This document shows positions 2,172 to 37,875 of a stretch of 64,000 bases of DNA, in pieces. The stretch covers positions 51,646,001-51,710,000 of the forward strand of contig OY740798.1 in assembly GCA_963514005.1 (NCBI GenBank), in the 5' to 3' direction. Position 1 is the stretch's first letter. Every line of letters starts with the position of its first letter. A program made the position numbers and the translations under genes. The DNA comes from Raja brachyura (lineage: Eukaryota). Under the pieces are notes generated by a model, which was not told where the DNA came from, ran no database searches, and was given only the letters and a program-made list of their open reading frames with translations.

Positions 2172-2603
2172 TTCCTCCAGAGATCAATGGACCCAATGGA
2201 CGTCAAACCATGAAACATCAGGAAAAAGAAAAGGCCACTTGGTGGGTGCGTTCATTCCGACCTCGTGAAATTACAATTCACTTATACCTAAAGAGGAAGG
2301 GGGATCAGGTGAGAAATAAAATTTTAAATTGGAACAGCAAAGAGTATATTCCACACAGAAATGGAATGATCAATGGAGAGGGTCGCAATGAAGCGAAGAT
2401 TCTTATGAATTCAAACTGCGTCGATGCATCTTTTACACCATTGGATCACGAATATAACAGTAATGCAGATGGGACTTACAGTGTGACGATCAATGTAGAA
2501 ATATATCCAGATGTTAACAAGGATGCAGGGGCTGAATTAACCATTGAAGTTCAACATAAATCACTGAAACAAACAAAGACTTTGATACTGGATGTAAAAG
2601 GAG
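2172..2603 (+). CDS. Ig-like exon 1 (C1-set-like, both canonical cysteines replaced) of a multi-Ig-domain gene
   Basis: AG acceptor 2170-2171 and GT donor 2604 (G|GTAAAG). Open 432-nt phase 1-1 exon: xPPEING...WVRSFRPREITIHL...NADGTYSVTINVEIYPDVNKDAGAELTIEVQHKSLKQTKTLILDVKG. The FxPxxI, DGTYS and VxHxSL C1 motifs are present. Confidence 0.8.
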
Positions 2604-2671
2604 GTAAAGTATAAATGTTTTCTTTAATCATTAATGTCTATATATTGTGATTTAATTCTCAATGTCTTCAG

Positions 2672-5600
2672 TCATAGTGATACAGCGTAGAAACAGGCCC
2701 TTCAGCCCAACTTGCCCAAGCCGACCAACATGTCAGTCAGTCTGGACACTTCACCCCATCTGCCCGCGTTTGGTCCATATCCCTCTAAACCTGTTCTATT
2801 CATCTACCTGTCAAAATATTTATTTAAAATTGTGATAGTACCTACCTCAACTACCTCGTCTGGCAGCTTGTTCCACACACTCACCACCTTTGTATGAAAA
2901 GGTTACCCCTCAGATTCCGATAAAATCTACCCACCTTCCTCATCTTAAATCTATGTCCTCTGGTCCTCGATTCACCTACTCAGGGTAAAAGACTCTGTGC
3001 ATCTACTCGATCTAGTCCTCTGATAATCTTCTACACCTCTATTTGATCACTCCTCATCGTCCTGTGCTCCAAGGAATAGAGTCCTAGCCTGCTCAACCTC
3101 TCCCTATAGCTCAGACCCTCAGTTCCTGGCAAGATCCTCGTAAATCTTCTCTGCACTCTTTCCAGCTTGACAGCTGTGGCTAAGGGGATCAGGGGGTATG
3201 GAGAGAAGGCAGGTACAGGATACTGAGTTGGATGATCAGCCATGATCATATTGAATTCCTGCCTTCTCTCCATACCCCCTGATCCCTTTAGCCGCAAGGC
3301 CACATCTAACTCCCTCTTAAATATAGCCAATGAACTGGCCTCAACTACCTTCTGTGGCAGAGAATTCCAGAGATTCACCACTCTCTGTGTGAAAAATGTT
3401 TTCCTCATCTCAGTCCTAAAAGATTTCCCCCTTATCCTTAAACTGTAACCCCTTGTCCTGGAGTTCCTCAACATCGGGAACAATCTTCCTGCATGTAGCT
3501 TGTCCAACCCCTTAAGAATTTTGTAAATTTCTAGAAGATTCCCCCTCAATCTTATAAATTCCAGCAAGTACAAGCCGTGTCTATCCAGTGTTTCTTCATA
3601 TGAAAGTCCTGACATCCCAGGAATCAGTCTGGTGAATCTTCTCTGTACTCCCTCTATGTCAAGAATGTCTTTCCTCAGATTTGGATCAATCTCGTGAACC
3701 TACGCTGCTCTGCCTCAATCACAAGGATGTCCTTCCTCAAATTAGGAAACCAAAACTGTACACAATACTCCAGATGTGGTCTCACCAGAGCCCTATACAA
3801 CTGCAGAAGAACCTCTTTACTCCTCTACTGAAATCCCCTTGTTATGAAGGCCAACATTCCATTAGCTTTCTTCACTGCCTGCTGTACCTGCACGCCAACT
3901 TTCAGTGACCGGTGTACAAGGACACCCAAGTCTGGCTGCACCACCCGCTTAACTAACCTAACCCCATTGATATAATAATCTGCCCCCTTGTTTTTGCTGC
4001 CAAAGTGAATAACCTCACATTTATCTATATTATACTGCATCTGCCACGCATCTGCCCACTCACTCAACCTGTCCAGGTCACCCTGCAACCTCCTAACATC
4101 CTCTTCACAGCTCACACTGCCACCCAGCATTGTGTCATTCGCAAATGTGCTAGTGTTGCTCCTAATTCCCTCTTCCAAATCATTAATATATATGGTAAAC
4201 AGTTGCGGCCCCAACACCGAGCCTTGCGGCACTCCACTCGCCACTGCCTGCCATTCTGATCCGGTCTGCCAACCAATTTTCTATCCATGTCAACGCCCTA
4301 CCCCCAATACCATGTGCTCTAATTTTAGTCACCAGTCTCCCGTGCAGGACCTTATCAAAGGCTTTCTGAAAGTCTAGATACACTACATCCACTGGCACCG
4401 CTTCATCCATTTTACATGTCACATCCTCAAAAAATTCCAGAAGATTAGTCAAGCATGATTTCCCTTTCATAAATCCATGTTGACTTGGACTAATCCTTTT
4501 ACTGCTATCCAAATGCCCCGTTATTACCTCTTTAATAATTGACTCCAGCATCTTTCCCACTACCGAAGTCAGGCTAACTGGTCTGTAATTCCCCGTTTTC
4601 TCTCTCGCTCCTTTCTTGAAAAGTGGCGTAACATTAGCTATCCTCCAATCCACAGGAACTGATCCTAAATCTATTGAACATTGGAAAATGATCACCAATG
4701 CGTCCACTATTTCTAGAGCCACCTTCCTGAGGACCCTGGGATGCAGACCAACAGGCCCAGGGGATTTATCATCCTTCAGTCCCATTAGCCTACCCAATAC
4801 TATTTCTCGCCTAATGACAATTTCTTTCAGTTCCTCTACCCCCTTAGATCTTCTGTCCTCCAGTACATCTGGGAGATTGTTTGTGTCCTCCTTAGTGAAG
4901 ACAGATCCGAAGTACCTATTCAACTCTTCTGCCATTTCCTTGTTGCCCATAATAATTTCACCCGTGTCTGCCTTCAAGGGACCCACATTTGACTTTGCTA
5001 CTCTTTTTCCCTTAACATATCTCAAGAAGCTTTTACTGTCCTTCTTTATATTCCTGGCCAGCTTCCCTTCATATTTCATCTTTTCAGCCCGTATTGCCTG
5101 TTTTGTTTCCTTCTGTTGTCCTATGAAAGTTTCCCAATCCTCTGCCTTCCGGCTACTCTTTGCTGTGTTATACATCTTTTCTTTTAGTTTTATTCTATCC
5201 CTAACCTCTCTTGTAAGCCACGGTTGCCTCCTACTCCCCTTAGAATCTTTCTTCCTTTTTGGAATGAAATGATCCTGCGTCTTCCGGATTATGCCCAGAA
5301 ATTCCTGCCATTGCTGTTCCACCGTCATTCCTGCTAGGATCCCTTTCCAGTCTACTTTGGTCAGCTCCCCTCTCATGCCTTCATAGTCCCCTTTGTTCAA
5401 CTGCATCACTGACACTTCCGATTCAACCTTCTCCTTCTCAAATTGCAGATTAAAACTAATCATATTATGATCTCTGCCTCCAAGCGGTTCCTTTACCTCG
5501 AGTTCTCTTATCATATCTGGTGCATAGGACAACACTACAAGCTGCTCTAAGAATCCATTACGGAGGCATTCTACAAACTCTCTTTCTTGGGGCCCTGAAC

Positions 5601-5895
5601 CAACCTGATTTTCCCAGTCTACCTGCATATTGAAATCCCCCATCACCACAGTGACATTACCTTTGTTACATGCCAGTTTTAACTCCTGCTGCAACGTACA
5701 CCCGACATCCGGGCTACTATTTTGGGGTCTGTAGATAACACCAATTAGTGTCTTCTTGCCGTTACAATTTCTCAACTCAATCCACAGTGACTCTACCTCG
5801 TCAGTCCCCATGTCTTCCCTCGCAAGGGACTGGATTCCATCCCTCACCAGCAGAGCTACCCCCCCCCCCCCCCCCCCCCCCACTCCTCTGCCCAC
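2672..5895 (-). mobile_element. Nested/fragmented CR1-type LINEs (APE endonuclease + RT)
   Basis: ORF 4183-5895 has GDFN, DHNMI, KSPGPVG, NYRPVSLTS, QHGF and YLDFQKAFDKV; 3825-4244 has GVPQGSVLGP; 3' fragments have LEFxRLRG and FFTQRVVNLWNSLP. Internal deletions and frameshifts. Confidence 0.92.
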
Positions 5896-6019
5896 CTTAT
5901 CTTGACCTTTAGGAGATTCATCAGTTGACTCAAGTCACGGAATATTCACACAGTAATGTAATATTTTCTTGCTTTTGTGAATTTCAACTAGGTGATTTGT
6001 TTGTTTTCTTTTCTCAAAG

Positions 6020-6397
6020 TGCCACCCAAGGTTTTAAACATCTTCAAACCCTCTTGCATCATTCACAATGAATCTGCATCTTTGATCTGTTCAATCACTG
6101 GGTTTAAACCGAGACCGTTACGTATCACGTGGCAACGAAAGAGAAAGAACATGGAGGCGGAAGAAATAGTTCGAATGGAGGAGGACAACAGGACAATTAT
6201 TCCCGGTGGTGACGGGGAGATGTCCAAATATAAACATTACATCAGTGAGATGAAGCATGATGATGAATCCTACAGCATCACCAGTGTACTCGTGATAGTG
6301 CCTGATATACAGCAAGATCAACACTCGCTTTACACGTGTAAAGTACATCACAGCGGCACCGGTGACCAGGAGAGAGAAATCGAGTTAATGATTGCAG
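6020..6397 (+). CDS. Ig C1-set exon 2
   Basis: Polypyrimidine tract + AAG acceptor (6018-6019); GCAG|GTATAT donor. Open 378-nt phase 1-1 exon: VPPKV...LICSITGFKPRPLRITW...SYSITSVLVIVP...YTCKVHH, with canonical C, W and C and a long C-D insertion. Confidence 0.9.
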
Positions 6398-6499
6398 GTA
6401 TATAATACTTCCATCTAAGCTTTGCATTGACAGAGGATGCAGAGTGCCTACTTATTTGGAACGGTGTCTTAAATATCATACCACAACCATTAATGTACG

Positions 6500-6915
6500 C
6501 AGTGCGTTTGAAGGCTCTGGGTCTGTACTCGCTGGAGTTTAGAAGGACGAGGGGGGGATCTCATTGAACCTACTGAATAATGAAAGGCCTGGATAGAGTG
6601 GATGTAGAAAAGATGTTTCCACTAATGTGAGACTCCAGGACCAGGCTCAGAGTAAAAGGATGTACCTTTACAATGGAGATGAGGAGTTTCTTTAGTCAGA
6701 GGTTGGTGACTCGGTGGAGTTCATTGCTACAGGCAGCTGTGGAAGCCAAGTCATTGGGTTTTTCAAAGCGGAGATTTATAGGTTCTTGATTAGTAAGAAT
6801 GTCAAAGGTTAAGTGGAGAAGGCAGGAGAATGGGGTTGAGAGGGAAAAATAGATCTACCATGATTGAATGGCGGAATTGAGTCAATGGACCGAATGGCCT
6901 AATTCTACACTGCCT
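6500..6915 (+). mobile_element. CR1 3' fragment
   Basis: LGLYSLEFRR..G.L-like remnant and the 3' UTR 'gaatggcctaattct' shared with other CR1 copies in the window. Confidence 0.7.
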
Positions 6916-7288
6916 TTTACAAGGGGAATGATTTTGAATGGTTTTGAAAAAAACACAATAATAGGATACAATTGTATTGGGGTTAATGAAGTCATTCATT
7001 TTTCAAAAATTATATGTGTCTTTTGCATAGTTTTCAAAAACATGGGTGATTGCGTTTCTGGCCATTGATCACGGAAAGGCCAAACATCTATTCCTTAGTT
7101 TTGCAAAACTGCTTGTGTTTGAATATAGAAACAAGGAACTGCAGATGCTGGTTTATACCAAAGATAGACACAATGTGCTGGAGTAACTCAGCGGGTCAGG
7201 CAGCATCTCTGGAGAAAAGGATGGGTGACGTTTTGGGTCGGGGCCCTGCTATCTTGACTTGTGTTTGAAGTCTTGTTTTTTATTTCAG

Positions 7289-7588
7289 CCATTCCAAAAG
7301 TGGACTTAATAAAGTGCTGCGCAGAGAAGATAATTGATGGTGTACCCATGACGATGAGCTGTGAAATACATGCGTTTTACCCCAGAGACATCACAGTGAA
7401 ATGGCTGAAAAATGAAGAGACGTTGCAGAATTTCAAAGTTGCTGAGCCAGTAATTGGTCAGGATAGTCTCTATCATGTGACAAGTGATGTGGAGATAGTC
7501 CCCACCAGGGCTGGGGCAACAGACAAATACACGTGCCACGTGTCCCATCTGAGCCTGACTGAGCCATTACACACTTCTTGTGTTGCAG
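7289..7588 (+). CDS. Ig C1-set exon 3
   Basis: TTTTTATTTCAG acceptor; GCAG|GTGAAA donor. Open 300-nt phase 1-1 exon: AIPKV...MSCEIHAFYPRDITVKWLKN...LYHVTSDVEIVP...YTCHVSHLSLTEP, a textbook C1 signature (YxCxVxH). Confidence 0.93.
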
Positions 7589-7667
7589 GTGAAATGGGTA
7601 CGTAACAACGTTTACGCCAAGACTGCTTTCATCTGAACTTCTTAAACAGTCTTCAGTTGGTAATTCA

Positions 7668-8435
7668 TTATGGATAGAGTGAAAGTGGAGAGGATGTTTC
7701 CACTAGTGGGAAAGTCGAGGACCAGTGGCCACAGCCTAAGAATAAAAGCACATACCTTTAGGAAGGAGATGAGGAGGAATTTCTTTAGTCAGAGGGTGGT
7801 GAATCTGTGGAATTCATTGCCACCGATGGTCGTGAAGGTCAATTCAATGGATATTTTTAAAGCGGAGATTGGCAGATTCTTCATTAGTAAGGATGGTGGA
7901 TTAGTACGGGTGTCAGGGGTTATGGGGAGAAGGCAGCAGAAATGGGTTGAGAGGGAAAGATAGATCAACTATGATTGTATGGCAAAGTAGACTTGATGGG
8001 CCAAATGGCCTAATTGTGCTCCTATAACTTATGAACGTATGAATTATCTAATGATATAGAACGTAGAACAGTACGGCACAACCACTCGACCCACAATGTC
8101 TGACCAACACTCATCTGCCTGCACATAATCCATATCCCTCCATATCCATGTGCCTATCCAACAGTCTATTAAATGCCACTATCCTTTCTGCCTCGACCAC
8201 CATCCCTGATAACACGTTCCAGACACTCACCCCCTTCTATATTAAAAAAATGGACCCACACATCTTCTTTAAAATTTGCCTCTCTCACCTTAAAACTATG
8301 GCCTCTAGTATTTGATTTTTCTATCCTTTTTTTTCCAGACAGAGGCTCTGACTGGCTACCCTATCCAGGCCTCTCCTGATATAATGTACCTCCATCAGGT
8401 CTCCCCACAATCACTGCCATTCCCGAGAAAACCAC
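7668..8435. mobile_element. Two CR1 3' fragments (plus 7668-8040, minus about 8055-8435)
   Basis: ORF 7670-7963 reads RMFPLVGKSRTSGHSLRIK...FFSQRVVNLWNSLP; a reverse-oriented CR1 3' remnant follows. Confidence 0.7.
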
Positions 8436-8587
8436 TACATTTATCTACTGTATTATTTTTATTCACAGTCTTTGAAAAGTGAAGCACAAAGTGCTTGAGT
8501 AACCCAACGGGTCACACAGCATCTGTGGAGGGAATGGACAGGGCACTTTGTGGGTCAGAAGCCTTCTTCAGACAGATTAATCTGTAA

Positions 8588-8683
8588 TGTGTGCGTGTGG
8601 CTGTGTGTGTGTGGCATTGTGCGTGTGTGTGGCATTGTGCGTGTGTGTGTGGCTATCTGTGTGTGGCTGTGTGTGTGTGTGCG

Positions 8684-8733
<50 letters not shown>
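8588..8733. repeat. (GT)n microsatellite, imperfect at its 5' end
   Basis: Directly visible GT dinucleotide run. Confidence 0.95.
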
Positions 8734-8734
<1 letters not shown>

Positions 8735-8855
8735 ACCCCTGGTATTCAGAGTGAAATCTCAAATATTATTAATATTGATGTTTGTTGTTTTGTTTATTAT
8801 GTTACTTATTGAGTACTGGGTTTACGGACCTGTTATGCTGCTGCACAAACAGTAA

Positions 8856-9653: not shown

Positions 9654-9714
9654 TAAGTCTTTCCATTTTGGTACATATGACAATCACTCTCTTGACTCTT
9701 GAAAAGCCATTCCA

Positions 9715-11415: not shown

Positions 11416-11718
11416 GTACAAAACAGATAGATGGTTCCTCAGAACTTTCAATCTTTCATCCCTTGTTTTCTTAATTTTTTGTTAATATTTCTCTGAATTC
11501 TAGTGTTCTTTAAATTACACGTTCAGATTAACCTTTTTTTCCCCTTTTCTCCAGCTTCATGTCCAGAGCTTACAGCAATTGAGGTCGATCCACTTTGCCC
11601 CGAAATGGGAAAGGAAGTAACACTCTCCTGCAAAGCTTACGGGTTCTATCCTGAAGGAAATTCAATATTCTGGTTCAAAGGAATACAACAAATCGTAGGT
11701 CTATTGGAACCAGGAATT

Positions 11719-14700
11719 TCATTTCGGAGTCACGTGAGTGACTTCGTGAAGAGCCCGCCGGCGCGCATGCTCGACATATCGTCGTACCGCGTTGCTGCGA
11801 CGGCTGGCGGTGGAGCGCGCTCCTCGCCAGCCCTTCAGAAGGGGCCACGGAGGTAAGTATTCTACCTTTAGTTGGTGGTCCTTGTTGTTGGTTTTGTCTT
11901 GCAGCAAGGACATGGATGGGAGTTCCAAGGGCCGGAGGACGTCAGGACGAGTTCGCCGGTCAACAGTTCCGGGGCCTTTACCATCGGCAGTACCTGCATC
12001 GCAGGCCGGGACTCAGGCGGAGATGTGGGTAAGCCCTGTGTTTACAGGTCCAGATCCGCCAGCACACCACAGCTCGGAGGAGTTCGACGAGGAGGAGTGT
12101 GGTGTGCCGCCAGAGCAGGGGGACCCTGCCATGGCAGTCAGGTCGTCAGCGGGCTCGCTGGCGACCTCGAGCTGGGTGCGTGCGGCTGCACGGCCTGTTC
12201 CACTCCGAGAAGGGGAAGGGCAGGAGCCCAGAAGCCTAACCCTACCAGGGCTAAGGCATTGCCTGACACGGAGGAGCGGTCAGGTTCCAGGGAAAGACCC
12301 GGGGCGGCTGTGAGGTCCAGCCGGCACGCCCCGACTCTCGACGCCGGGACGGGTCGGTCGAGTCGGGTCTCGTCACGGTCGCCGAGCCCCCCATGGATGG
12401 GTGGGCGAGACCATGCGTCGGCAACGTCCACGATGTGGGCAGCCGGCAAGACTGCGCGGGCCCCAGGCAGCCATGCTTCGGCTGGTGCCGACACCTCGCC
12501 GCAAGTGCCCTTAGTGGCAGCGGCTTCAGCTCCCGCTAAACGGAGGCGGTTGAACACGCCCGCGCAGGAATCGCGCAGTTCGCCTCGGCGGCTGTTAGCG
12601 ACAACTACCGGCACCGGCAGGGCCTCGACGAGGTGCGGGCCGATGACAGGAGCCCGGTTTTCTTTTCAGAGCCGGAGGACTCCGACCACCTGAGTGTTCA
12701 GGGTGAAGGGCGTATTGACCGTATGGAGCGGCTGCTGGAGCTCCTGCTTCAACGTCAACAACAGCAGGGCAGCAACAGGCACAGGGCGTCTTCACAAACA
12801 TCTACCATCAGCCTGGAGCAGCAGGAAGAAGTCCTCATCCAGGCAATGAGCCGTCACAAGGCTCCATCCAATTGCAACTCCCTCAACGTGCCTGTGGTCA
12901 ATACGCCGATATGGGGCAACATCAGTGCGGCTATCCGTCAACAGGAGGTAAAACTGCAGCGGATCCTGAAGCTCCTCACGGCCGGTATTACCGCCTTTGT
13001 GCGGTCGGTGGACGGGGACGAATTGAATTTGGACCAGGGAGATGCCCTGGCCCTCCTGTGCGCGACCCAGCACGAAATTAACGGGTTTCGCAAAACCAGC
13101 ATCCGCCCAGCGCTCAATCCAAAGTTTGCAGGAGTGTGCAAACCACCGCCGCCGCCCCCGCCCCGTCAGCTCTTTGGGAAGGACCTCTCGAAGAGAGTCA
13201 AAGAGCTTGACGAGCAAGCCAAAACGGTGGGGATCATGCGCCCTCAGAGTGCCCCCACACCGTCAGGCTCAAAGTCTCCATACATTCGATCACGAGGGTC
13301 TGCCAGTACCTCGACGAGGACCCAGCCTCAAGCTCCACAACGACAGCAACATCAGACCCAGCACCAGGGGTCTTTTTTAGGACAGGGTCGGCAGAGACCC
13401 TGGTGGAAAACGAAGACGCAGCGCCCTCAAGCCAACCCAGCACCTCCACGTCCACACACGCGTGTCAAGGACCGCCGGTAACCACGGAGGTGAGGGGGTC
13501 TGGTTCTCTCTTTTCTCTCTGTTTAACTTCACATGTTGGTGGTCACCTTCGGTGGTTTTTTGGGTGCATGAGGTAATTTCACTGGTGACGAGTATGTGTT
13601 GCAGAATATTCAGGGGCATAAAATTGAGTTTATTAATGGCGACATTCCTCCATCCCAGCACATGCCCGCTCGAACATTTAAAATTATCTGCTGCAGAACA
13701 GGCAGCCGGCTATAAGGAATTGTTAAGTCTTGAGCAAAGGAGTGATTAAGAGAGTGGTGCATGAGCCAGTTGAATTTGTTTCGAACATATTCACCAGACC
13801 TAAGAAGGATGGAAGTTGTCGTGTCATTATTGATCTAACCCGTTTGAATACTTTTGTAACATATTCTCATTTTAAAATGGATACGATGAAACAACCAAAT
13901 CATTGATTTCTCATGGTTGTTTTATGGCATGCATCGGTTTAAAAGACGCATATTATTCCGTATCCGTCCAGAAATGTGACAGAAGGTTTTAAAAATTCAT
14001 CTGGATGGGGCAACTCTGGCAGTACAAGGCTTTGCCTAATGAGCTCACCACAGCCCTAGATTGTTCACTAAATTAGTGAAGCCAATTATGGCTTATTTGA
14101 GACAACGACACCATATAGTATGGCCTATTTAGATGATGTCTTAATTGTGGGCCACACCCTGGAATTGGCTGAGCAGGGTGTTGCAGCTGCTGTCAATATA
14201 TTTCAACAATTGGGGTTTATTGTCCATCCAGAGAAATCAAAGTTCTACCCTGCCCAGGTGATTAATTACCTAGGGTTCACGGTGAACTCTATAAGCATGA
14301 GGGTTACCATTCCAATTAACAAGATTGAGGAGGTTACCCAGGTGTGTCAAGATTTAATCCGCACCAATATACCATCGATTCGGCACTTAGCTACAATAAT
14401 TGGGAAGCTGGTAGCTTTGTTTTCGGCAGCGCGATATGGACCTTTGCATTATCAGAATTTGCAAAGAGCTAAAATTGCTGCGTTAAAACAGAACGTTGGT
14501 TATTATGATCGGTCCATGCAGCTGCCGCCCGAAGCGATAAATGAGTTGCAATGGTGGGTGTGTCACATTAGCAACTCATTCAAGCCTATTAGGGAGGCTA
14601 ATCCGGTGGTATATTTGCAAACTGATGCAAGCTCCAATGGTTGGGGATCCACGAATAATTGCTCTAGTTGTGGTGGCAGATGGGACACCCTTGAATCAAC

Positions 14701-16858
14701 GATGTTGTTAGCTCAAGGGATTAACTATTTGGAGTTGCTGGCAGCATTCCACGGACTTCGTGCGTATTGTTCTAAGCTTGTGGAGCACATGTCCGTCTCC
14801 AAATAGACAACACCACAGCAGTAGCATATTTAAACCATATGGGTGGTACCAGGCCTGTTTCGTGTGACAAATTGGCAAACTCAATTTGGCTCTGGTGTGT
14901 TCAAAGAGACATTTGGATTTCAGCTACCTATTTGCCAGGTGAGCTTAATACTGTGGCGGACACCAGGTCACGCAAATTTAATGACAACATTGAATGGATG
15001 TTGCATCCTGAGATCTTTTCTAAAGTCACAGCCAAATTTGGTAAACCGGACATTGACCTCTTTGCGTCACGGTGGAACCATCAGGTACCAACCTACGTTT
15101 CATGGGAACCAGATCCTGGGGCAATAGCGCTAGATGCATTCTCGCTGGACTGGGGGAAGTGGTTTTTCTATGCCTTCCCCCCATTTTGCCTCATCAGTCG
15201 GGTATTGGGAAAGATTCAGGCAGATGCTGCCAAGGGCATCCTTATTATACCCGACTGGCCCACACAGCCTTGGTATCCGGTGGTCTTTGACATGCTCAAC
15301 GAACCTTGGGTCCTTTTGAAGGGTTGCCCACAATTGGTTACTCACCCTGTGTCAGGGGAGCCGCATCCCTGCCATGGCTATTTAAATTTGTTGGCTTGCA
15401 GGTTCTGAACAGGCCGTTAGTCCAATACGGCCTCTCGGCTCGGACCATGGATACCACCGGGGCGTCGTGTCGAGAGTCTACAAGGCGAAGATACCGCTCG
15501 CATATTAAGAAGTGGGAAGCCTACTGCAGCCGCTCTCGCATCACGTACGATGACGTGACAACAACCGACGTCCTGGAATTCCTCGCGGGGTTGCACCATG
15601 ATGAACACTTAAGTTACAGTGCCATCAACAGCGCCAGAAGTGCGCTATCATTCTACCTCAGTTTGGAGGTAGGATCCAACAGGCTAGTGTCCAGACTCAT
15701 GCGGGGTATATTCAATATGAATCCGCCTACACCACGCTATAATATCACCTGGGATGTCAGGGACGTATTAACCCTGCTCAGGACGTGGTCACCCATGGAA
15801 GGGCTCCAACTGGACCAACGCACCATGAAGCTGGTGATGTTACTAGCGCTGACTTCAGCTCAGAGGGTACAGACACTACACAAACTTCGTGTCGACAGAA
15901 TGACGTCTACCCCCACAGAAGTAGTCTTTTTCATTGACGAGCTACTAAAGCAGCATAGACCTGGGTGCACAGGGCTGCAGCTGAAGTTCCCGGCATACCC
16001 CGCAGATGCTAGGCTATGTGTAGCCTCACATATCCGCCACTATGTCAAGGTGACGGCACGCATCAGAGGAATGGAGCGATACCTGCTTGTCACTCATAAG
16101 AGACCTCATCATCGAGTGACAGTCCAGACGATATCCATGTGGCTTCCAGTCGTTTTGGGTAAGTCAGGTATCGACACTAATGTGTTCAAGTCTCTTTCCA
16201 ACAGGGCTGCATCGACGTCATCGGCGAGGGTCATGGAGGTGCCCATGGACAAAATTCTCGCTACAGCAGGATGGGCTAATGAAGCTGTGTTCCAGCGTTT
16301 TTATAACAAGCCTGTTGCTGCTCCTCTACAGTTTACAGAAGCCGTGCTGAATGCAGGTCACGAACGTGGAGATGTCCCCGCATGAGGGGTTTTGATTTGT
16401 TATTAATAACTCTGCTCTTGTTTTGCAGTATGAACTATTGAGCAAGTTTGTTCCTCCCATCCATCCCTGGTAGTGGTGTGTCAGCATGGACGTGGTCCAG
16501 GGCGTGTAATCACAGAAGCTTTGAAGTCTTCACGAAGTCACTCACGTGACTCCGAAATGAAATAGTAAGATTGAACGAGAACTTACCAGTTCGAAGGTTG
16601 ATCATTATTTCATGAGGAGTCGAAGTGAGGGATTTCGTGCCCTCCTCGCCCAACCCTCAATCACCTTCATCTGGTAATCTTAGTCACTTCAATCTTACTA
16701 TGCGAAGTCATTTCTTTGTTGGTTTCTGTGATTCCACGCCGCTACTTTGAAGTATGTCGAGCATGCGCGCCGGCGGGCTCTTCACGAAATCCCTCACTTC
16801 GACTCCTCATGAAATAATGATCAACCTTCGAACTGGTAAGTTCTCGTTCAATCTTACT
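11719..16858 (+). mobile_element. DIRS1-type tyrosine-recombinase retrotransposon, copy A (degenerate)
   Basis: Left ITR from 11719; right ITR plus extension at 16753-16858; internal complementary region at about 16527-16639. The gag, RT (YLDD), RNaseH, MT (DLFAS, YAFPPF) and YR ORFs are recognisable but frameshifted. gag lacks about 50 aa relative to copy B, and the YR motif HSTR has become LSNR. ATT flanks both ends. Confidence 0.95.
15402..16385 (+). CDS. Tyrosine recombinase of DIRS copy A (catalytic His altered)
   Basis: SAQRVQTL, LLKQHRP, AGW and FQRFY motifs are present; the HxxR motif reads LSNR. Confidence 0.85.
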   Translation, partial: VLNRPLVQYGLSARTMDTTGASCRESTRRRYRSHIKKWEAYCSRSRITYDDVTTTDVLEFLAGLHHDEHLSYSAINSARSALSFYLSLEVGSNRLVSRLMRGIFNMNPPTPRYNITWDVRDVLTLLRTWSPMEGLQLDQRTMKLVMLLALTSAQRVQTLHKLRVDRMTSTPTEVVFFIDELLKQHRPGCTGLQLKFPAYPADARLCVASHIRHYVKVTARIRGMERYLLVTHKRPHHRVTVQTISMWLPVVLGKSGIDTNVFKSLSNRAASTSSARVMEVPMDKILATAGWANEAVFQRFYNKPVAAPLQFTEAVLNAGHERGDVPA

Positions 16859-17430
16859 ATTACTCTGGAACCAACCAAACAGGACACTAAGAATGGTTGC
16901 TATTCTCGTTTATCCAAGTGGAAATTCACACCAGCTGCTGATGACCATGGAAGAGAATAGTAAGATTGAACGAGAACTTACCAGTTCGAAGGTTGATCAT
17001 TATTTCATGAGGAGTCGAAGTGAGGGATTTCGTGAAGAGCCCGCCGGCGCGCATGCTCGACATACTTCAAAGTAGCGGCGTGGAATCACAGAAACCAATC
17101 AAGAAATGACTTCACATAGTAAGAATGAAACGACTAAGATTACCAGCTGAAGGTGATTGAGGGTTGGGCGAGGAGGGCACGAAATCCCTCACTTCGACTC
17201 CTCATGAAATAATGATCAACCTTCGAACTGGTAAGTTCTCGTTCAATCTTACTATTTCATTTCGGAGTCACGTGAGTGACTTCGTGAAGACTTCAAAGCT
17301 TCTGTGATGACACGCCCTGGACCACGTCCATGCTGTCACACCACTACCAGGGATGGATGGGAGGAATAACTTGCTGACTAGTCCATACTGCAAAACAAAG
17401 CATATTTATTAACAAACAAATCAAAACCCC

Positions 17431-18420
17431 TCATTCGGGGACATCTCCACGTTCTTGCCCCGCATCTAGCACGGCTTCTGCGAACTGTAGAGGCGCAGCA
17501 ACGGGCCGGTTGTAAAACCGCTGGAACACCGTCTCATTAGCCCATCCTGCTGTGGCGAGAATATGGTCCATGGGCACCTCCATGACCCTCGCCGCCGACG
17601 TCGATGCAGCCCTGGTGGAATGAGATTTGAACACATTAGTGTCGATACCTGACTTACCCAAGACGACTCGAAGCCACCTGGATATCGTCTGTGTTGTCAC
17701 TCGATGGTGAGGTCTCTTATGAGTGACAAGCAGGTATCTCTCCATTCCTCTGATGCTTGCCGTCACCTTGACGTAGTAACGGATATGGGAGGCTAAGCAT
17801 AGCCTAGCATCGGCGGGGTATGCCGGGAACTTCAGCTGCAGCCCTGTGCACCCAGGTCTGTGTTGCTTCAGTAGTTCGTCAACAAAGAAAACTACTTCTG
17901 TGGGGGTAGACATCATTCTGTCGACACGTAGTTTGTGGAGTGTCTGTACCCTCTGTGCTGAAGTCAGCGCTAGTAACATCACCAGCTTCATGGTGAGTTT
18001 GTCCAGCTGGAGCCCTTCCATGGGGGACCACGTCCTGAGCAGAGATAAAACGTCCCTGACATCCCAGGTGATACTGTAACGTGGTGTAGGCGGATTCGTA
18101 TTGAAAATACCCCGCATGAGCCTGGACACTAGCCTGTTGGATCCCACCTCAATATTGAGGTGGAATGATAGAGCGCTCCTGGCGCTGTTGATGGCACTGT
18201 AGCTTAAGTGTTCATCATGGTGCAACCCCGCGAGGAATTCCAGGACGTCGGTTATAGTCACGGCATCGTACGTGATGCGAGAGCGGCTGCAGAAGGCTTC
18301 CCACTTCCTGATGTGAGAGCGGTATCTTCGCCTTGTAGACTCTCGGCACGACGCCGCAATGGTATCCATGGTCCGGGTAGAAAGGCCGTATTGTTCTAAA
18401 GGCCGATTCAGAATCTGCAA
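17431..18420 (-). CDS. DIRS tyrosine recombinase (YR)
   Basis: Complete catalytic set: R (SAQR), K (LLKQ), HSTR, AGW, Y (FQRFY). Confidence 0.95.
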   Translation of the reverse strand: MQILNRPLEQYGLSTRTMDTIAASCRESTRRRYRSHIRKWEAFCSRSRITYDAVTITDVLEFLAGLHHDEHLSYSAINSARSALSFHLNIEVGSNRLVSRLMRGIFNTNPPTPRYSITWDVRDVLSLLRTWSPMEGLQLDKLTMKLVMLLALTSAQRVQTLHKLRVDRMMSTPTEVVFFVDELLKQHRPGCTGLQLKFPAYPADARLCLASHIRYYVKVTASIRGMERYLLVTHKRPHHRVTTQTISRWLRVVLGKSGIDTNVFKSHSTRAASTSAARVMEVPMDHILATAGWANETVFQRFYNRPVAAPLQFAEAVLDAGQERGDVPE

Positions 18421-20417
18421 GCCAACAAATTTAAATAGCCATGGCAGGGATGTGGCTCCCCTGAAACAGGGTGAGTAACTAATTCTGGGCTACCCTGCAA
18501 ACGGACCCAAGGTTCACTGAGCGTGTCAAAGACCATCGGATACCATGGCTGTGTAGGCCAGTCGGGTATGATAAGGATGCCCTTGGCACCGTCCATCTGA
18601 ATTTTACGTAATACCCGACTGATGAGGCAAAACGGGGGGAATGCATAGAAAAAGCAATTCCCCCAGTCTAGCGAGAATGCATCTAACGCTATAGCCCCAG
18701 GATCTGGTTCCCACGCGACGTAGGTTGGTACCTGATGGTTCAACCGGGACGCAAAAAGGTCAATGTCCGGTTTCCCAAATTTGGCTGTGATTTTTGCAAA
18801 AATTTCAGGATGTAACATCCATTCAATATTATCATTGAACTTGCGTGACCTGGCGTCCGCCACAATATTAAGCTCACCTGGCAAATAGGTAGCTGAAATC
18901 CAAATGTCTCTCTTGACACACCAGAGCCAAATTGAATTAGCCAATTTATCACATGAAACTGACCTGGTACCGCCCATGTGGTTTAAATATGCCACCGCTG
19001 TGGTATTGTCTATTTGGAGCCGGACATGTGCTCCAATGATCTTGGAACAATATGCACGAAGTCCGTGAAACGCTGCAAGCAGCTCCAAATAGTTGATCCC
19101 TTGTGATACCAACATCGTATTCTCAAGGGTATCCCATCGGCCCCCACAACTAGAGAATTGATTCGTAGCTCCCCAGCCATCAGAGCTCGCATCAGTTTGT
19201 AAGTATATCATCGGTTTCGCCTCAATAATAGTTTTGAACGAGTTACTAATGTGGCAAACCCACCATCGTAATTCATCCAATGCTGCAGGCGGCAGCCGCA
19301 TTGATCGATCATAATGACCAGCATGCCGTCGCAACGCAGCGATCTTGGCTCTCTGCAAGTTTTGATAATGCAGAGGTCCATACCGGGCTGCCGGAAACAA
19401 AGCCACAATCTTGCCAATGACAGTAGCTGAGTGACGAATCGATGGTATACGAGTATTAATCAAGTCTGTACACACCTGTGTTACCTCCTCAATTTTGTTA
19501 ATTGGTATGGTGACTCTCATGCTAATGGAATTCACCTGGAACCCCAGATAATTAATTACCTGGGTGGGGCAGAACTTAGATTTTTCTGGATGAACAATGA
19601 ACCCAAGCTGTTGGAACAAATTGACCGCAGCTGCAACCCCTTGTTGTGCTAATTCCAAGGTGTGGCCGACAATTAAAATATCATCTAAATAGGCCATAAC
19701 AATATGATGTCTTTGTCTTAAATAAGCCATAATTGGCTTCACCAATTTAGTAAATAAGCGAGGGGCTGTGGTGAGCCCATTAGGCAACGCCCTATATTGC
19801 CACAGCTGATCCATCCAGATAAATTTTAAGAACCTTCTGTAATATTTTTTCATAGGTACGGTATAGTACGCATCCTGTAAATCGATGCATGCCATAAAGC
19901 ACCCTTGTGAAATCAATGATTTGGCCGTTTCAAACGTGTCCATTTTAAAATGAGTATATGTTACAAAGTTATTCAGAGTGGTTAGATCAATAATGACTCT
20001 ACAGCCTCCATCCTTCTTAGGTCTAGTAAAAATATTGGAAACAAATTCAACGGGCTCATGAACCGTTCTCTCTATGACCCCTTTCTGTTCCAACCTTAAA
20101 ATTTCCTTATAGCCAACTGACTGTTCCGCAGCCGTTAGTTTGAAAGTACGACCCGGTCTATGCTGAGGTGGAGGGATGTCCCCATTAATAAACTCAATAC
20201 TATGGCCCTGAATATTCCGTAACACATACTCATCGCTGGTAATGTCACCCCATGCACCCGCAAACAACCGCAAACGCCCACCAACATGTGGAGTTAAACA
20301 AAGAGAAAAAAGAGAACCAGATCGCCTCACCTCTGTGGTTACCGGCGGTCCCTGACACGGGTGGGTGGTCGTGGAGGTGCTGGGTTGGTTTGAGGTCGTG
20401 GCGTCCTCATTTTCCAC
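18408..20417 (-). CDS. DIRS pol: reverse transcriptase + RNase H + DNA N6-adenine methyltransferase-like domain
   Basis: PKKDGGCRVIIDL, IDLQDAY, LPNGL and YLDD (RT); TDAS, NYLELLA, DNTTAV and NIVADARSR (RNase H); DIDLFAS and YAFPPF (MT). Confidence 0.96.
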   Translation of the reverse strand: MENEDATTSNQPSTSTTTHPCQGPPVTTEVRRSGSLFSLCLTPHVGGRLRLFAGAWGDITSDEYVLRNIQGHSIEFINGDIPPPQHRPGRTFKLTAAEQSVGYKEILRLEQKGVIERTVHEPVEFVSNIFTRPKKDGGCRVIIDLTTLNNFVTYTHFKMDTFETAKSLISQGCFMACIDLQDAYYTVPMKKYYRRFLKFIWMDQLWQYRALPNGLTTAPRLFTKLVKPIMAYLRQRHHIVMAYLDDILIVGHTLELAQQGVAAAVNLFQQLGFIVHPEKSKFCPTQVINYLGFQVNSISMRVTIPINKIEEVTQVCTDLINTRIPSIRHSATVIGKIVALFPAARYGPLHYQNLQRAKIAALRRHAGHYDRSMRLPPAALDELRWWVCHISNSFKTIIEAKPMIYLQTDASSDGWGATNQFSSCGGRWDTLENTMLVSQGINYLELLAAFHGLRAYCSKIIGAHVRLQIDNTTAVAYLNHMGGTRSVSCDKLANSIWLWCVKRDIWISATYLPGELNIVADARSRKFNDNIEWMLHPEIFAKITAKFGKPDIDLFASRLNHQVPTYVAWEPDPGAIALDAFSLDWGNCFFYAFPPFCLISRVLRKIQMDGAKGILIIPDWPTQPWYPMVFDTLSEPWVRLQGSPELVTHPVSGEPHPCHGYLNLLACRF

Positions 20418-22072
20418 CTCGGCTTCTGCCGAGCCTGTCCTAAAAAAGACCCCTGGGGTTGGGGTGGCTGATATCGGTTTGGAGCTGGAGGGTAATTCCT
20501 GGTGGAAGTGCTGACAAACCCTCGTGAACGGCCAAGTGGGGCTTTCGAGCTTGATGGCGTGGGGGCACTGTGAGAGCGCATGAGCCCCACGGTCTTGGCT
20601 TGTTCATCCAGCTCTCTGACCCTTTTGGAGAGGTCTTCGCCAAAGAGCTGACGGGGCGGCGGCGGCGGCGGTGGTTTGCACAACCCTGCAAACTTAGGGT
20701 TGAGCGCTGGGCGGATGCTGTGTTTGCGAAAGCCGTTTATTTCGTTTTGAGTAGCGCACAGAAGCGCCAGAGCATCCTCCTGGTCCAAATTAAGCTCCTC
20801 TCCGTCGACCGACCGCACAAAGGCAGTAATCCCGGCCATGAGGAGTTTCAGGATCCGCTGAATTTTCAGCTCCTGCTGACGGATAGCCGCACTGATGTTG
20901 CCCCATATTGGCGTATTGACCACAGGCACGTTCAGGGAATTGCAGTTTGATGGAGCCTTGTGGCGGCTCATGGCTTGTAGCAGGACTTCCTCCTGAAGCT
21001 GGTGATTATTTAGGAAGTCCACTGTGGCTGCCAACTTCGTATTGATGGGAAGCCCCAACGAATGAGGGGCTGCAAATTTGGTAGCCACATCGAGGAGGTC
21101 CTCCGCCGGTAATTCAGGCGGGGGTGGGATGGGGTCAACCACGGCCTCCTCGTCCTGCTGCTCCAGGCTGGTGTACGAAGCTGGTGATGAAGCCCTGTGC
21201 CTGTCGCTGCTGGATGCCTGTTGTTGTTGACCTTGTAGGAGAAGCTCCAGCAGCCGCTCCATCCGGTCAATACGCCCTTCACCCTGAACACTCAGGTGGT
21301 CGGAGTCCTCCGGCTCTGAAAATTGGCCGGGGCTCCTGTCATCGGCCCGCACCTCGTCGAGGCCCTGCCGGTGCCGGTAGTTGTCGTCGACAGCCGCCGA
21401 GGCGAAACTGCGCGATTCCTGCACGGGCGTGTTCAACCGCCTCCGTTTAGCGGGAGCGGAAGCCGTTGCCTCTATGGACAGGTGCGGCATGGTGTCGGCA
21501 CCAGCCGAAGCCTGGATACCTTGAGCCCGTGCAGGCTTGCCAGCTGCCCACATCGTGGACCTTGCCGACGCATGGTCTCGCCCACCCATCCATGGGGGGC
21601 TCGGCGACCGTGACGGGACCCCCAACTGACTCGTCCCGGCGTCGAAAGTTGGGGGGCGACGGCTGGACCTCACAGCTGCCCCGGGTCCCGTCCTGGAACC
21701 TGACCGCTCCTGGGCGGCAGGCAGAGCCTTAGCCCCGACAGGGTTAGGCGTCTGGGCTCCTGCCCTTCCCCTTCTCAGAGGGCTGCGTGAAACGGGCCGT
21801 GCAGCCGCACGGACCCTTCTGCTCGAAGCCGTCAGCAAGCCTGCTGACGACCTGGCTGCCATGGCAGGGTCGTCCTGCTCTGGCGGCACACCACACTCCT
21901 CCTCGTCGGACTCCTCCGAGCTGTGGTGTGCGGGCGGGTCCGGACCTGAAAAGACAGAGCTCACCGACATCTCCGCCCTCGTTCCGGTCTGCGTTGCAGG
22001 TACCCCCGACAACTCTCGCTCCGGAACCGCTGGCCGGCGACTTCTCCTCGAACTCCGGCCTCTCCCATCCAT
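20339..22072 (-). CDS. DIRS gag-like ORF1
   Basis: Long open frame from the ATG at 22072; low-complexity N-terminus, then PSNCNSLNVPVVNTPIW...IRPALNPKF...LFGEDL. Collinear with the broken ORFs of copy A and overlaps the pol start. Confidence 0.85.
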   Translation of the reverse strand: MDGRGRSSRRSRRPAVPERELSGVPATQTGTRAEMSVSSVFSGPDPPAHHSSEESDEEECGVPPEQDDPAMAARSSAGLLTASSRRVRAAARPVSRSPLRRGRAGAQTPNPVGAKALPAAQERSGSRTGPGAAVRSSRRPPTFDAGTSQLGVPSRSPSPPWMGGRDHASARSTMWAAGKPARAQGIQASAGADTMPHLSIEATASAPAKRRRLNTPVQESRSFASAAVDDNYRHRQGLDEVRADDRSPGQFSEPEDSDHLSVQGEGRIDRMERLLELLLQGQQQQASSSDRHRASSPASYTSLEQQDEEAVVDPIPPPPELPAEDLLDVATKFAAPHSLGLPINTKLAATVDFLNNHQLQEEVLLQAMSRHKAPSNCNSLNVPVVNTPIWGNISAAIRQQELKIQRILKLLMAGITAFVRSVDGEELNLDQEDALALLCATQNEINGFRKHSIRPALNPKFAGLCKPPPPPPPRQLFGEDLSKRVRELDEQAKTVGLMRSHSAPTPSSSKAPLGRSRGFVSTSTRNYPPAPNRYQPPQPQGSFLGQARQKPRWKMRTPRPQTNPAPPRPPTRVRDRR

Positions 22073-22427
22073 GTTCTTGCTGTGAAACAAACACAACAAG
22101 AACCACCAACTTAAGGTAGCATACTTACCTGCGTGGTTCCCTTATGAAGGGCTGGCGAGGAGCACGCTCCTCCGTCAGCCGTCGCAGCAACGCGATACGA
22201 CGATATGTCGAGCATGCGCGCCGGCGGGCTCTTCACGAAGTCACTCACGTGACTCCGAAATGAAATTTAAGATGAAAGTCCTTCATTCTGCAACTTCAAG
22301 CAATGCCATCGCTACCAGTTACACTTTAAAATTAAAAGGTGAATATTGTTGCAGCAAAATCTGCAGCCACATCATACCATAAGACGGATGTGGAAAAGGC
22401 GCAGAAGAGGTTTATCAAAATGCTTAG

Positions 22428-22610
22428 GAAGGAACTGCAGATGCTGGTTTACACCGAAGATAGACACAAAATACTGGAGTAACTCAGTGGGACAGGCAGC
22501 ATCTCTGGAGAGGAGGAATGGGTGACATTTCGGATGGAGACCCTTCTTCAGTCCTTCTCTCCAGAGATGCTGCCTGTCTCACTGAGTTACTCCAGCATTT
22601 TGTGTCTTTT
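22428..22610. mobile_element. Short Penelope-derived fold-back element with a hammerhead-like core
   Basis: Arms 'gacacaaaatactggagtaactcagtgggacaggcagcatctctggagag' and 'ctctccagagatgctgcctgtctcactgagttactccagcattttgtgtc' are inverted; the minus strand has CTGAAGA-A-GGGT-CTCC-ATCC-GAAA. Confidence 0.7.
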
Positions 22611-22619
22611 TTATCAATA

Positions 22620-23905
22620 TATTGCTTGGTTTAGTGGGTTTCTGCTACAGGGAGAGGTTGGACCAACTTGAATTGTATTCTCTGGTACGCCAGAGTCTGA
22701 AGGGAGACCTGATAGAAGTATATAAAATAATAATGGGGTAGACAGTCAGAACCTTTTTCCCAGGGTGGAAATGTGAAAGACTAGAGGGTATAGCTTTAAA
22801 GGTGATGGGGGCTAGGTTTAACGGTGATGTGCAGGGCAAGTTTTCTACATGGGTACCTGGAACATGGAGGTACAATAGTGGCTTTCATGAAGCTTTTGAA
22901 TAGGCACAGGGAATGGAGGAATATGGATCACATGCAGGCAAAGGAGACTCGTTTATCAGTGCGTCAAGTTCAGCACAGACATTGTGGGCCGAAGGGACAG
23001 TCCCTGTAGTGTATTGTTGTTTGTACAGTAAACAGGCCCGTCGGGTCACCGAGTCCGCGCTGACCAGCGATCACCCCGTACCTTAGCACTATTCTACACT
23101 GGCGACTATTTACAATTTTACTGCAGCCAATTAACCGACTAACCTGTACGTCTTTAGAGCGTGGGAAGAAACCGGAGCACCCGGAAAAAACCTTTTCTAT
23201 TTTATATTTATATGTTGCACTACATTTCTACATTGGTTGATGCCGCATTGAAATCAGCCCTTCGGCCCTCCGAGTCCACGCCGGCCATCGATCACCCGTT
23301 CACACCAGTTCTATGTTATCCCACTTTCTCATCCACTCCCTACACACTAGGGACAATTTACAGAGGGACAATTACCCTACAAACCTGTACATCTTTGGGA
23401 TGTGGGAGGAAACCCACGCGATCACAGGGAGAACGTGCAAACTCCACACAGACTGCAGCCTAGGTCAGGATGGAACCCAGGACTGTGGTGCTGTGAGGCA
23501 GCAGCTCTACCCGCTGTGGCACTGTGCTGACTTCATGATTGATAAAAGAAGAATATTTTCAAAATGGCTGGATTCTGTACAGCACCAACTGTGCGAGATG
23601 CTGGATTCTATTCCACTTTTATTGCCAGCTGTACCGAGGCACAGGCGGCAGGGGCACAGCGCCAGAATCCTGCCTTTGATCCTGACTACGGGTGCTTTGT
23701 GTACAGAGTTTGTACACTCTACTTGTGATCGTGTGGCTTTTCCCAGGGTGCTCCAGTTTTCTCCCTCACTCGAAAGATGTGCAGATTTGAAGATTAATTG
23801 GCATCAATAAAAATTGTAAATTGTCACTAGTGTGCAGGACAGTGTTAGTGTACAGGGATTGCTGGTCGGTGCGGACACTCGCTGGGCCAAAGGGTCTGTT
23901 TCCAT
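22620..23905. mobile_element. CR1 3' fragment followed by SINE fragments in both orientations
   Basis: CR1 remnants ('ctgaagggagacctgatagaagtatataaaat', 'gggccgaaggg'); SINE motifs match 1-112 (minus at about 23030-23525, plus at about 23640-23905). Confidence 0.6.
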
Positions 23906-24075
23906 CCTTATAATAACAGTGGCCTTACATCAACATAAGGCTAGTTGTATTGGCTACAAAGCAATACAACTTCTCTCTCAAGAGTTCCACTTAAAACTAG
24001 CGGAATGCAGCAGACAAACTAGTGGGTGTAACGACAAATGGATGACTTATAACATGAGTCACTGATCTACACCAG

Positions 24076-24393
24076 CTTTGCCTCCTACCTTATCTCCTAT
24101 CACAAGTGATCCGGCTCCAAGGCTACTGAAAGTGAAGCAAGCTGATAATCTCTGTGTCTCCTTGACATCCTGTGTTCCTGCTCAAATCCAAGTCAAGTGG
24201 CTCCTAGATGGGAAGCTTTGCCAAGGAAGGTGTGAATGCTCTCCTGAGATCACAGATGATGGTTTGTTTTAATCTAATGTGAGCATAATGTTGGAGGCAG
24301 GAATAAATGATCACAGAGGTTGCATCAAATGTCAGGTGCTTCATGTGAAGACCGGAAACATTCAGGAGAAGGAATTCTAATTACTCTCTGAGG
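24076..24393 (+). pseudogene. Ig C1-set-like exon 5 with two in-frame stop codons
   Basis: CCAG acceptor (24075) and GAG G|GTGAAT donor. 318-nt phase 1-1 exon: ALPPTLSPITSDP...LTSCVPAQIQVKWLLDG...DDGLF*SNVSIML...IKCQVLHVKTGNIQEKEF*LLSE, with TAA at 24270-24272 and 24378-24380. Confidence 0.85.
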
Positions 24394-29266: not shown

Positions 29267-29311
29267 GTTTTGACAAAATAGAAAATGAAGTCAATGAAAA
29301 TGTCGATAAAG
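29267..29311 (+). CDS. 45-bp micro-exon, copy 1 (GFDKIENEVNENVDK)
   Basis: CTTTTTTATTCTGCAG acceptor and AAG|GTAAAA donor; only the phase-1 frame is open. Confidence 0.75.
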
Positions 29312-29399
29312 GTAAAAGTCTTCATTTCCAATAGTTACTGTATTTTGAATGTTTGCTTCAAGTAGAAATTTAGATCATTACACATGATCCAAATGTTCT

Positions 29400-30085: not shown

Positions 30086-30352
30086 GAGAGGACAAGTTGG
30101 TCCAAAGGGCCTGTTTCCACACTGTATGACTACGACTCTGTCTTTGGCATGTAGGAAGAAACCCGCACGTTCACAGGGGGGGGAACGTGCAAACGCCACA
30201 CAGACATCACCCGGTGGTCAGGATCGAAACCGGGTCTCTGGCGCTGCGCCGCTGCGCCGACCCTTTCACTTCAAACTTTATACTAGATTTATTTCATTGT
30301 CTCATTCACAACAAAGTTTCACGTTGAATAAATTAGTTTTATTTTTTTACTG

Positions 30353-37800: not shown

Positions 37801-37875
37801 CTACCGTCGGTTTTTCCAGCATCTGCAGTTCCTTCTTAAACATCAGGTTTAATTAAGTTCTTTTTTATTCTGCAG

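Follow-up and report, generated by a model that had tools for sequence, protein, structure and literature searches.

Exon content of the window

The window, a 64,000-nucleotide stretch of DNA from the skate Raja brachyura, carries part of a gene with the exon order leader-V-C1-TM-D1 to D7 (Table 1). A preliminary description had reported five plus-strand Ig exons between positions 2172 and 24393, all in phase 1-1. These exons are real, and D1, D2, and D3 are open, with AG..GT ends, phase 1-1, and lengths divisible by 3; the fourth exon is split by two DIRS-type retrotransposons, and the fifth contains two TAA codons. The tandem Ig run was confirmed as well, but its position C-terminal of a transmembrane (TM) helix had been missed. 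Because the TM exon lies upstream of the five Ig exons, these exons represent the part behind the membrane anchor. The TM exon occupies the same place between C1 and D1 in the window copy (W), in its duplicate (W'), and in paralogues X and Y. The leader exon is present in five tandem copies.

The three pieces of D4 join into 333 nt with a single open frame and 71-78% identity to orthologues. Loss of the middle of this exon by deletion was ruled out, as the middle piece sits between the two DIRS elements. The acceptor of D6 is at 24076. D5, which lies between D4 and D6 in orthologues, was not found in genome searches, and a genome search with D5 of paralogue Y gave matches only in X and Y. The short acidic spacer exons found 5' of D7 in relatives were not found here, and an Rfam search returned nothing.

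Table 1. Exons of the gene and inserted elements, by window position or, outside the window, by C18 coordinate.
Feature	Coordinates	Strand	Remarks
Leader exon	C18:51632124-265		Outside window, upstream
V exon	C18:51639853-40188		Outside window, upstream
C1 exon	C18:51642949-43269		Outside window, upstream
TM exon	C18:51645116-229		Outside window; ends ~770 bases before window start
D1, tail Ig domain	2172..2603	+	First exon 3' of TM exon; canonical Cys pair absent; contains a long disordered insertion
D2, tail C1-set domain	6020..6397	+	Both Cys present; Pfam C1-set E 1.4e-12
D3, tail C1-set domain	7289..7597	+	Both Cys present; Pfam C1-set E 7.1e-16
D4 exon, piece 1	11555..11718	+
DIRS-type retrotransposon 1	11719..16861	+	ORFs for RT and tyrosine recombinase; insertion site an ATT in D4
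D4 exon, middle piece	16862..16958	+
DIRS-type retrotransposon 2	16959..22266	-	Opposite orientation; ~86% identity to DIRS 1
D4 exon, last piece	22267..22338	+	GT donor
D6 pseudo-exon	24076..24393	+	Two in-frame TAA; D5 missing 5' of D6
Tandem array, window portion	27865..64000		~190 kb in all, within last intron, reaching ~C18:51867300
D7, intact terminal Ig exon	C18:51879495-796		Outside window, 3' of tandem array

C1 hallmarks had been proposed for every exon. Searches with the Pfam C1-set profile placed D2 and D3 above the cut-off, D4 piece 1 below it (E 0.011), and D7 not above it, with no match for D1 or for the 5' part of the fifth exon (D6). In paralogues X and Y, 11 of 12 tail exons scored above the cut-off. 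Although D1 lacks both canonical cysteines, its predicted structure is an Ig sandwich (pLDDT 85.9). The best hit in a fold search had a Z score of 12.1 and an rmsd of 1.8 over 99 residues, with C2/I-, V-, and C1-type domains mixed within 1-2 Z units among the top rows. D1 shares 69-80% identity with the three skate orthologues compared, and D2 shares 91-93% with those of Leucoraja and Amblyraja. The Ig fold of D1, together with its orthologue identity, indicates that the five-exon array is not due to chance. A fold search with the full-length model gave generic multi-Ig matches only, and a complex prediction for a D2-D3 homodimer, run without an alignment, scored 0.00, which speaks neither for nor against such pairing.

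Intron-free contigs from related species join V, C1, 110 letters, and D1 in three runs of one study, and a contig from run X2 continues through D2 and D3, ending at window position 7596. The gap between C1 and D1 is of TM size, the TM piece itself not being among the matched parts. The runs, labelled "RNA?" (two "probably DNA"), come from relatives and are not evidence that the window copy is expressed.

B7-H6 identity and gene neighborhood

The ectodomain consists of one IgV and one IgC domain, and human B7-H6 is the best PDB match for both the V exon (E 1.8e-10) and the first C1 exon (E 1.6e-15). Orthologues are annotated as NCR3LG1 or as "uncharacterized." The earlier assignment of the domains to the C1 types around B7-H6, tapasin, and SIRP was therefore borne out. 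With a leader and one TM segment after IgC, the protein is predicted to be a type I membrane protein, as is human B7-H6, whose gene is described at 11p15.1 (PMC6514059). The FG loop of human B7-H6 is described as fitting the groove of NKp30 (PMC3972465), and the loop reads VTPEKA in the skate and VTPLKA in human. Human B7-H6 thus shares with the skate gene the leader-V-C1-TM type I layout, the V FG loop, and the gene neighborhood. SIRP (V-C1-C1-TM with an ITIM tail) and tapasin (N-domain-V-C1-TM with a short ER-retention tail) were not matched by the skate gene, which has one outer C1, a long Ig tail, and no conserved ITIM.

The flanks had been proposed as the place to look for leader, V, and TM exons and for linkage to the MHC. 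Leader, V, C1, and TM exons do lie upstream; MHC linkage was not shown, and the neighborhood is instead that of NCR3LG1. KCNJ11 lies 19 kb after paralogue X, and RPS13 (50.80 Mb) and PIK3C2A (50.87 Mb) lie 0.8 Mb before the W cluster, in agreement with the human gene order around NCR3LG1 (KCNJ11/PIK3C2A/RPS13). NUCB2 did not turn up when 180 kb (51.15-51.33 Mb) were scanned with a crude motif. Cartilaginous fish carry three or more ancient paralogues, including W, X, and Y, and the paralogue cluster is split on C18 between 25.3 Mb and 51.4-51.9 Mb.

The Ig tail is conserved across jawed vertebrates

The architecture V-C1-TM-(Ig)6-7 was found in chimaera, sharks, rays, coelacanth, lungfish, bichirs, amphibians, turtles, and geckos, in several cases in proteins that carry the name NCR3LG1. 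The earlier idea of a lineage-specific family does not hold, and conservation of the tail is pan-gnathostome. Bombina XP_053576613, Rhinophrynus KAM4723194, Callorhinchus LOC103174895, and Latimeria LOC102345720 have the layout V-C1-TM-D1 to D7 as in the skate, but the window copy, unlike these four, lacks working D4-D6. The amphibian, turtle, gecko, and other listed relatives are homologous to the skate protein domain by domain, except that the scanned turtle and gecko proteins lack D2. Many such genes are present in Xenopus.

The TM segment lies between C1 and D1 in 11/11 orthologues, and the C-TM-tail order was found in 34/35 further matches. In 84 of 162 profile matches, a V domain and at least two Ig domains precede a single TM, and at least two further Ig domains come after it. 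Basic residues follow the TM segment, and net charge is higher after it in 69 of these 84 proteins, which are related and not independent, consistent with the positive-inside rule. Across the 84 related proteins, the ratio of observed to expected sequons reaches 1.72 outside but only 1.10 for the tail, with a reversed-sequon control also raised in the ectodomain (1.23). No second TM-like segment was detected in 19/20 tails. These sequence features suggest that the tail Ig domains very probably reside in the cytosol. Tail domains (0.28-0.38) are about as conserved as V (0.35) and C (0.38).

The canonical disulfide between strands B and F was lost in most D1, D4, D5, D6, and D7 domains. In a hand-picked set of 20 proteins ranging from chimaera to gecko, V (20/20) and C (20/20) always retain the cysteine pair, but it is rare or missing in D1 (2/20), D4 (0/20), D5 (5/19), D6 (2/19), and D7 (0/11, the F-strand column being uncertain). 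This loss in five of the seven tail domains is a further point for a cytosolic tail. D2 (17/17) and D3 (20/20) keep the pair family-wide, as extracellular C1 domains do, which argues against a cytosolic tail. The intracellular Ig chains of the titin, obscurin, and MyBP-C type, and also IGSF1, likewise have Ig domains in tandem away from the usual ectodomain site, many of them lacking the disulfide. In contrast to the skate tail, these are I-set domains, and the titin group is not membrane-anchored.

No enzyme domain was found in the tail, and no ITIM is conserved, an ITIM-like motif occurring in 2/7 proteins and not at a shared place. A basic cluster acting as a nuclear or lipid-binding signal was rejected, as only 4/20 D1 and 2/17 D2 domains have one.

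Alternative readings and the role of the family

The preliminary description had judged the exons not to be heavy-chain constant exons, and we give an Ig heavy-chain-like gene (IgW, IgM, IgNAR, or UrIg2) practically no weight. For D3 alone, the best PDB matches are indeed Ig heavy chains and MHC, UrIg2 is reported to have a V and nine C1 domains (PMC12227049), and shark UrIg2 and IgW resemble the skate gene in joining a single V to a long row of C1 domains, each with an exon of its own. However, their C1 run is extracellular and N-terminal of the TM, with a VJ-type V and an antigen-receptor locus, whereas here the TM precedes the run, V and C1 are B7-H6-like, and the neighbors are KCNJ11, PIK3C2A, and RPS13; exon order and orthologues exclude this reading. 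A secreted V-(C1)7 protein, our first reading from the Ig exons alone, was dropped after the orthologues and the TM exon were found. In a related version, the array would matter mainly in a product made by skipping of the phase 1-1 TM exon, a long soluble V-(C1)n decoy for NKp30, and the membrane form would merely carry it. In Bombina isoform X2 precisely the TM segment is missing, two other proteins (P0021 and P0069) pass from C1 directly to D1, D2 and D3 have both cysteines, and soluble human B7-H6 is reported to blunt NK cells (PMC6514059). We nonetheless regard a decoy as unlikely, given the loss of the cysteine pair in 5/7 tail domains across taxa, the lack of sequon enrichment in the tail, the retention of the TM in nearly all models, and the TM-sized spacer kept in assembled contigs. 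Even less probable is re-translocation of the tail into the ER lumen, as through the internal signal of IGSF1, which would make the C1 domains extracellular. The invariant cysteines of D2 and D3 would fit this, and C1-set domains of other proteins are not known to occur beyond the secretory pathway. Against it stand the basic residues after the TM, the type I topology of human B7-H6, and the single hydrophobic segment after the leader in 19/20 proteins; in IGSF1, a second such segment brings the C-terminal Ig run back into the lumen, and the skate family lacks one.

The state of the window copy is a separate matter. Its lesions are two DIRS insertions in D4, the absence of D5, and two TAA codons in D6. 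All five fall within D4-D6, which make up 963 of 3292 coding nt (p ~0.002 if evenly spread; p ~0.01 without D6). An open frame and AG..GT ends are kept in leader, V, C1, TM, D1-D3, and D7, which together give 777 aa when D4-D6 are skipped, and Hypanus, Hemitrygon, and Mobula naturally lack D5-D6, as Leucoraja and Amblyraja lack D6. We lean toward W still making a shortened D1-D2-D3-D7 form with the dead exons skipped. That W is a dead pseudogene, with function resting on X and Y, is less probable but a serious contender; this estimate concerns W only and is compatible with our preferred reading of the family. Besides the lesions, the five leader-exon copies and the 190-kb array inside the gene favor it, as do near-neutral differences between W and W', with 12 nonsynonymous and 4 synonymous changes for V and 14 and 4 for D1. 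D2, D3, and D7 show no excess change, a point for the shortened form. Paralogues X and Y are intact and W is the least intact of the three; X or Y are therefore better subjects for study.

We propose, with a probability of about 0.72, that the window exons encode the post-TM part of a skate B7-H6 (NCR3LG1) type I protein with a predicted cytosolic C1-type tail, likely an NKp30 ligand and possibly a scaffold. The outer V-C1 pair would be the ligand of this NK receptor, and from its sequence the skate V-C1 probably binds NKp30. Behind the membrane, the predicted cytosolic chain of C1-type domains may be a scaffold that binds proteins to anchor, cluster, or traffic the ligand; we hold such a role at about even odds. 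The human tail is a Gag-related segment with tyrosine motifs and has no Ig array, whereas intact members of the skate family have six to seven Ig domains after the TM. It is an evenly balanced possibility that the ancestral jawed-vertebrate B7-H6 had a cytosolic C1-set array, an undescribed intracellular scaffold or sensor coupling cell state to NKp30-ligand display, kept for ~450 million years from chimaeras to lizards and replaced in mammals. Our literature search turned up no account of a B7-H6 tail with Ig domains; the main B7H6 evolution studies lay outside its coverage, and an earlier description is possible.

C1-set domains are the hallmark of antibodies, TCR, and MHC and are regarded as extracellular, disulfide-bonded modules. 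If our reading is correct, jawed vertebrates put the C1 fold to use within the cell early in their history, and D1 and D4-D7 would be natural disulfide-free C1 domains suited to work on folding and to the design of intracellular antibodies. Such a tail would also hint at a so far unrecognized inside-out or reverse-signaling arm of the NKp30-B7-H6 axis.

A partly broken B7-H6 copy

The window, most of which consists of repeats, contains a partly broken copy (W) of a B7-H6 (NCR3LG1) gene. A preliminary description had proposed an uncharacterised gene with at least five tandem C1-set-like Ig exons here. Exons 1 to 3, encoding tail domains D1 to D3, are open, but exon 4 (D4) is split by two DIRS-type elements and exon 5 (D6) carries two in-frame TAA codons. 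Pfam C1-set matches support the domain type for D2 (E = 1.4e-12) and D3 (E = 7.1e-16) but not for D1, which has no such match yet is predicted to fold as an Ig sandwich carrying a disordered insertion (Z up to 12.1 in fold comparison, the matched Ig domains belonging to several sets).

When the flanks were checked for leader, V, and TM exons, all were present upstream of the window. The suspected likeness to B7-H6 was borne out, with human B7-H6 the best PDB match of both V and C1. On sequence grounds, W thus belongs to the known B7-H6 family.

Exons of W inside and outside the window
Feature	Position	Strand	Remarks
Leader exon	upstream of window		five tandem copies
V exon	upstream of window		
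C1 exon	upstream of window		
TM exon	ends about 770 bases before window		114 nt, phase 1-1
D1 exon	2172-2603	+	AG/GT borders, open, length divisible by three
D2 exon	6020-6397	+	AG/GT borders, open, length divisible by three
D3 exon	7289-7597	+	AG/GT borders, open, length divisible by three
Last Ig exon (D7)	about 170 kb past window end		beyond tandem array

The leader copies lie within a 2773-bp tandem repeat (G000:C18:51621032-51632265, loci L028-L029), possibly reflecting copy-number variation or an assembly artefact. The last intron holds a higher-order tandem array of roughly 190 kb (window 27865-64000 on to G000:C18:51867300), with units of about 1.2, 2.9, and 7.4 kb that are 98-99% alike and composed of retroelement fragments.

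The elements in D4 are oppositely oriented, have reverse transcriptase (RT) and recombinase Pfam matches, and are about 86% alike; both insertion sites are ATT/AAT, and the two elements are independent. The elements (about 5.1 and 5.3 kb; window 11719-22266) retain long RT/recombinase ORFs, with 97 bases between the insertions. Joined, the three D4 pieces form an open 333-nt exon with 71-78% identity to orthologues.

This damage could mark a dying gene or, more likely, a shortened working form. Without D4-D6, the frame of W is open over 777 residues, and all five lesions fall in D4-D6 (post hoc, P is about 0.002 if evenly spread and about 0.01 without D6). Compared with Amblyraja, changes were not in excess in D2, D3, and D7 (3:4, 6:10, and 3:5). 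With Rhinoraja as the outgroup, they were in excess for the D4 pieces (6:2 and 6:1) and D1 (20:4); with Pristis, those in D1 were not (7:7). Between W and its duplicate W', V and D1 are near neutral.

Paralogues, transcripts, and distribution

W' lies on the same chromosome and is near-identical but partial (leader to D2). Two paralogues are intact, Y at 51.89 Mb and X at 25.33 Mb, each with a TM, six Ig exons, and a stop; the frame of X is open from V onward. An inverted, 93% identical copy of the Y C1 exon lies at G000:C18:51928655-51928326 (L045) without neighbouring exons. A fourth, short B7-H6-like type, Z, has a single tail domain before its stop (V-C1-TM-tail; G000:C18:51454575-51431084, minus), and additional D1 copies lie at 51347542 and 51528320; its tail domain is repeated up to seven times in related proteins (P0035). 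In a tree of D2-D3 (25 rows), the W, X, and Y clades were distinct, elasmobranch cores had support of 99-100, and chimaera genes fell with W (94/95) and Y (100/99).

KCNJ11 lies 19 kb beyond X on the opposite strand, and W is preceded, at a distance of 0.8 Mb, by RPS13 and PIK3C2A; all three are neighbours of human NCR3LG1. A passage of PMC6514059 places the human gene at 11p15.1. The cluster is in two parts, X with KCNJ11 (25.33-25.37 Mb) and W/Y/Z with RPS13-PIK3C2A (50.8-51.9 Mb of G000:C18), a split that suggests an inversion through it.

In sequencing runs X2-X4 of a related species (one study), intron-free contigs of 2514-2529 letters comprise V, C1, a TM-sized 110-letter stretch, and D1, the TM piece itself not being among the listed matches; the X2 contig extends through D2 and D3. 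Run X1 has a contig comprising V-C1 and 143 other letters, and a second that links D1-D2. These contigs, from runs without an RNA record, show spliced transcripts of orthologues, not of W itself.

The D2 exon matched 11 of 63 candidates, all 'uncharacterized' skate or ray proteins (closest, Leucoraja and Amblyraja, 91-93%); in all 11, one TM separates V-C1 from 3 to 10 more Ig domains. A profile of nine proteins recovered 392 representatives at E < 1e-30, and 84 of 162 examined had the layout required by a filter: V and two or more Ig domains, one TM only, and two or more Ig domains behind it. The 30 matches that were named came from chimaera, sawfish, coelacanth, lungfish, bichirs, caecilian, newts, and frogs, together with two teleosts whose tails are shorter; two of these 30 clusters carried an NCR3LG1 annotation. 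A Bombina tail query gave 40 matches, among them numerous Xenopus genes and sequences from whale shark, two turtles, and four geckos; NCR3LG1 was the name of several, and 34 of the 35 new matches had the C-TM-tail order. Neither match list contained a bird or mammal, though the searches were not aimed at ruling these out. Frogs and bichirs also have a second, more remote set of proteins, possibly related to B7-H6 (P0041, P0054, P0073, and P0099; up to 2158 aa), with V-C(-C)-TM followed by 6-12 low-scoring Ig domains.

Predicted topology of the tail

Given a leader and a single TM, the C1-type Ig array behind the TM is predicted to be cytosolic. In 69 of the 84 layout-filtered proteins, the stretch directly following the TM carried the higher net charge (means -0.7 and +2.2). 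In the same 84, sequons exceeded expectation in the outer part (observed/expected 1.72, against 1.23 for the reversed control); the tail showed no such enrichment (1.10, against 1.14). Among 20 proteins hand-chosen to cover taxa, every one had the full Cys pair in V and in C1 (20/20 each), and most had lost it from D1 (2/20), D4 (0/20), D5 (5/19), and D6 (2/19); D7 gave 0/11 in an uncertain alignment column. Its retention in D2 (17/17) and D3 (20/20) counts against a cytosolic tail, or for buried reduced cysteines. Of 20 tails, 1 had a second, weak hydrophobic stretch. A secreted isoform of the B7-H6-type protein is possible, as TM-skipped forms occur in the family.

Proposed role of the family

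A full-text literature search found no description of an Ig tail behind the B7-H6 membrane anchor, although work on Xenopus B7H6 may hold one: Flajnik 2012 reportedly analysed the Xenopus cluster, and the tail may already appear in that paper or in its supplement. The tail is apparently uncharacterised; the family itself is not specific to this lineage and runs from chimaera to geckos.

Human B7-H6 binds NKp30 (PMC6514059), and a passage of PMC3972465 describes its FG loop as relevant to this binding. The FG loop of skate V nearly equals the human one, and V would, by analogy, bind NKp30 on NK-like cells. The tail begins a few residues from the membrane, and its conservation is close to that of the ectodomain, yet we found in it no enzyme domain and no conserved ITIM or basic cluster; together, these features favour a protein-binding scaffold that would anchor, cluster, or traffic the ligand. 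The family carries an unusual, ancient, and apparently uncharacterised C1-type Ig array, predicted to lie in the cytosol.
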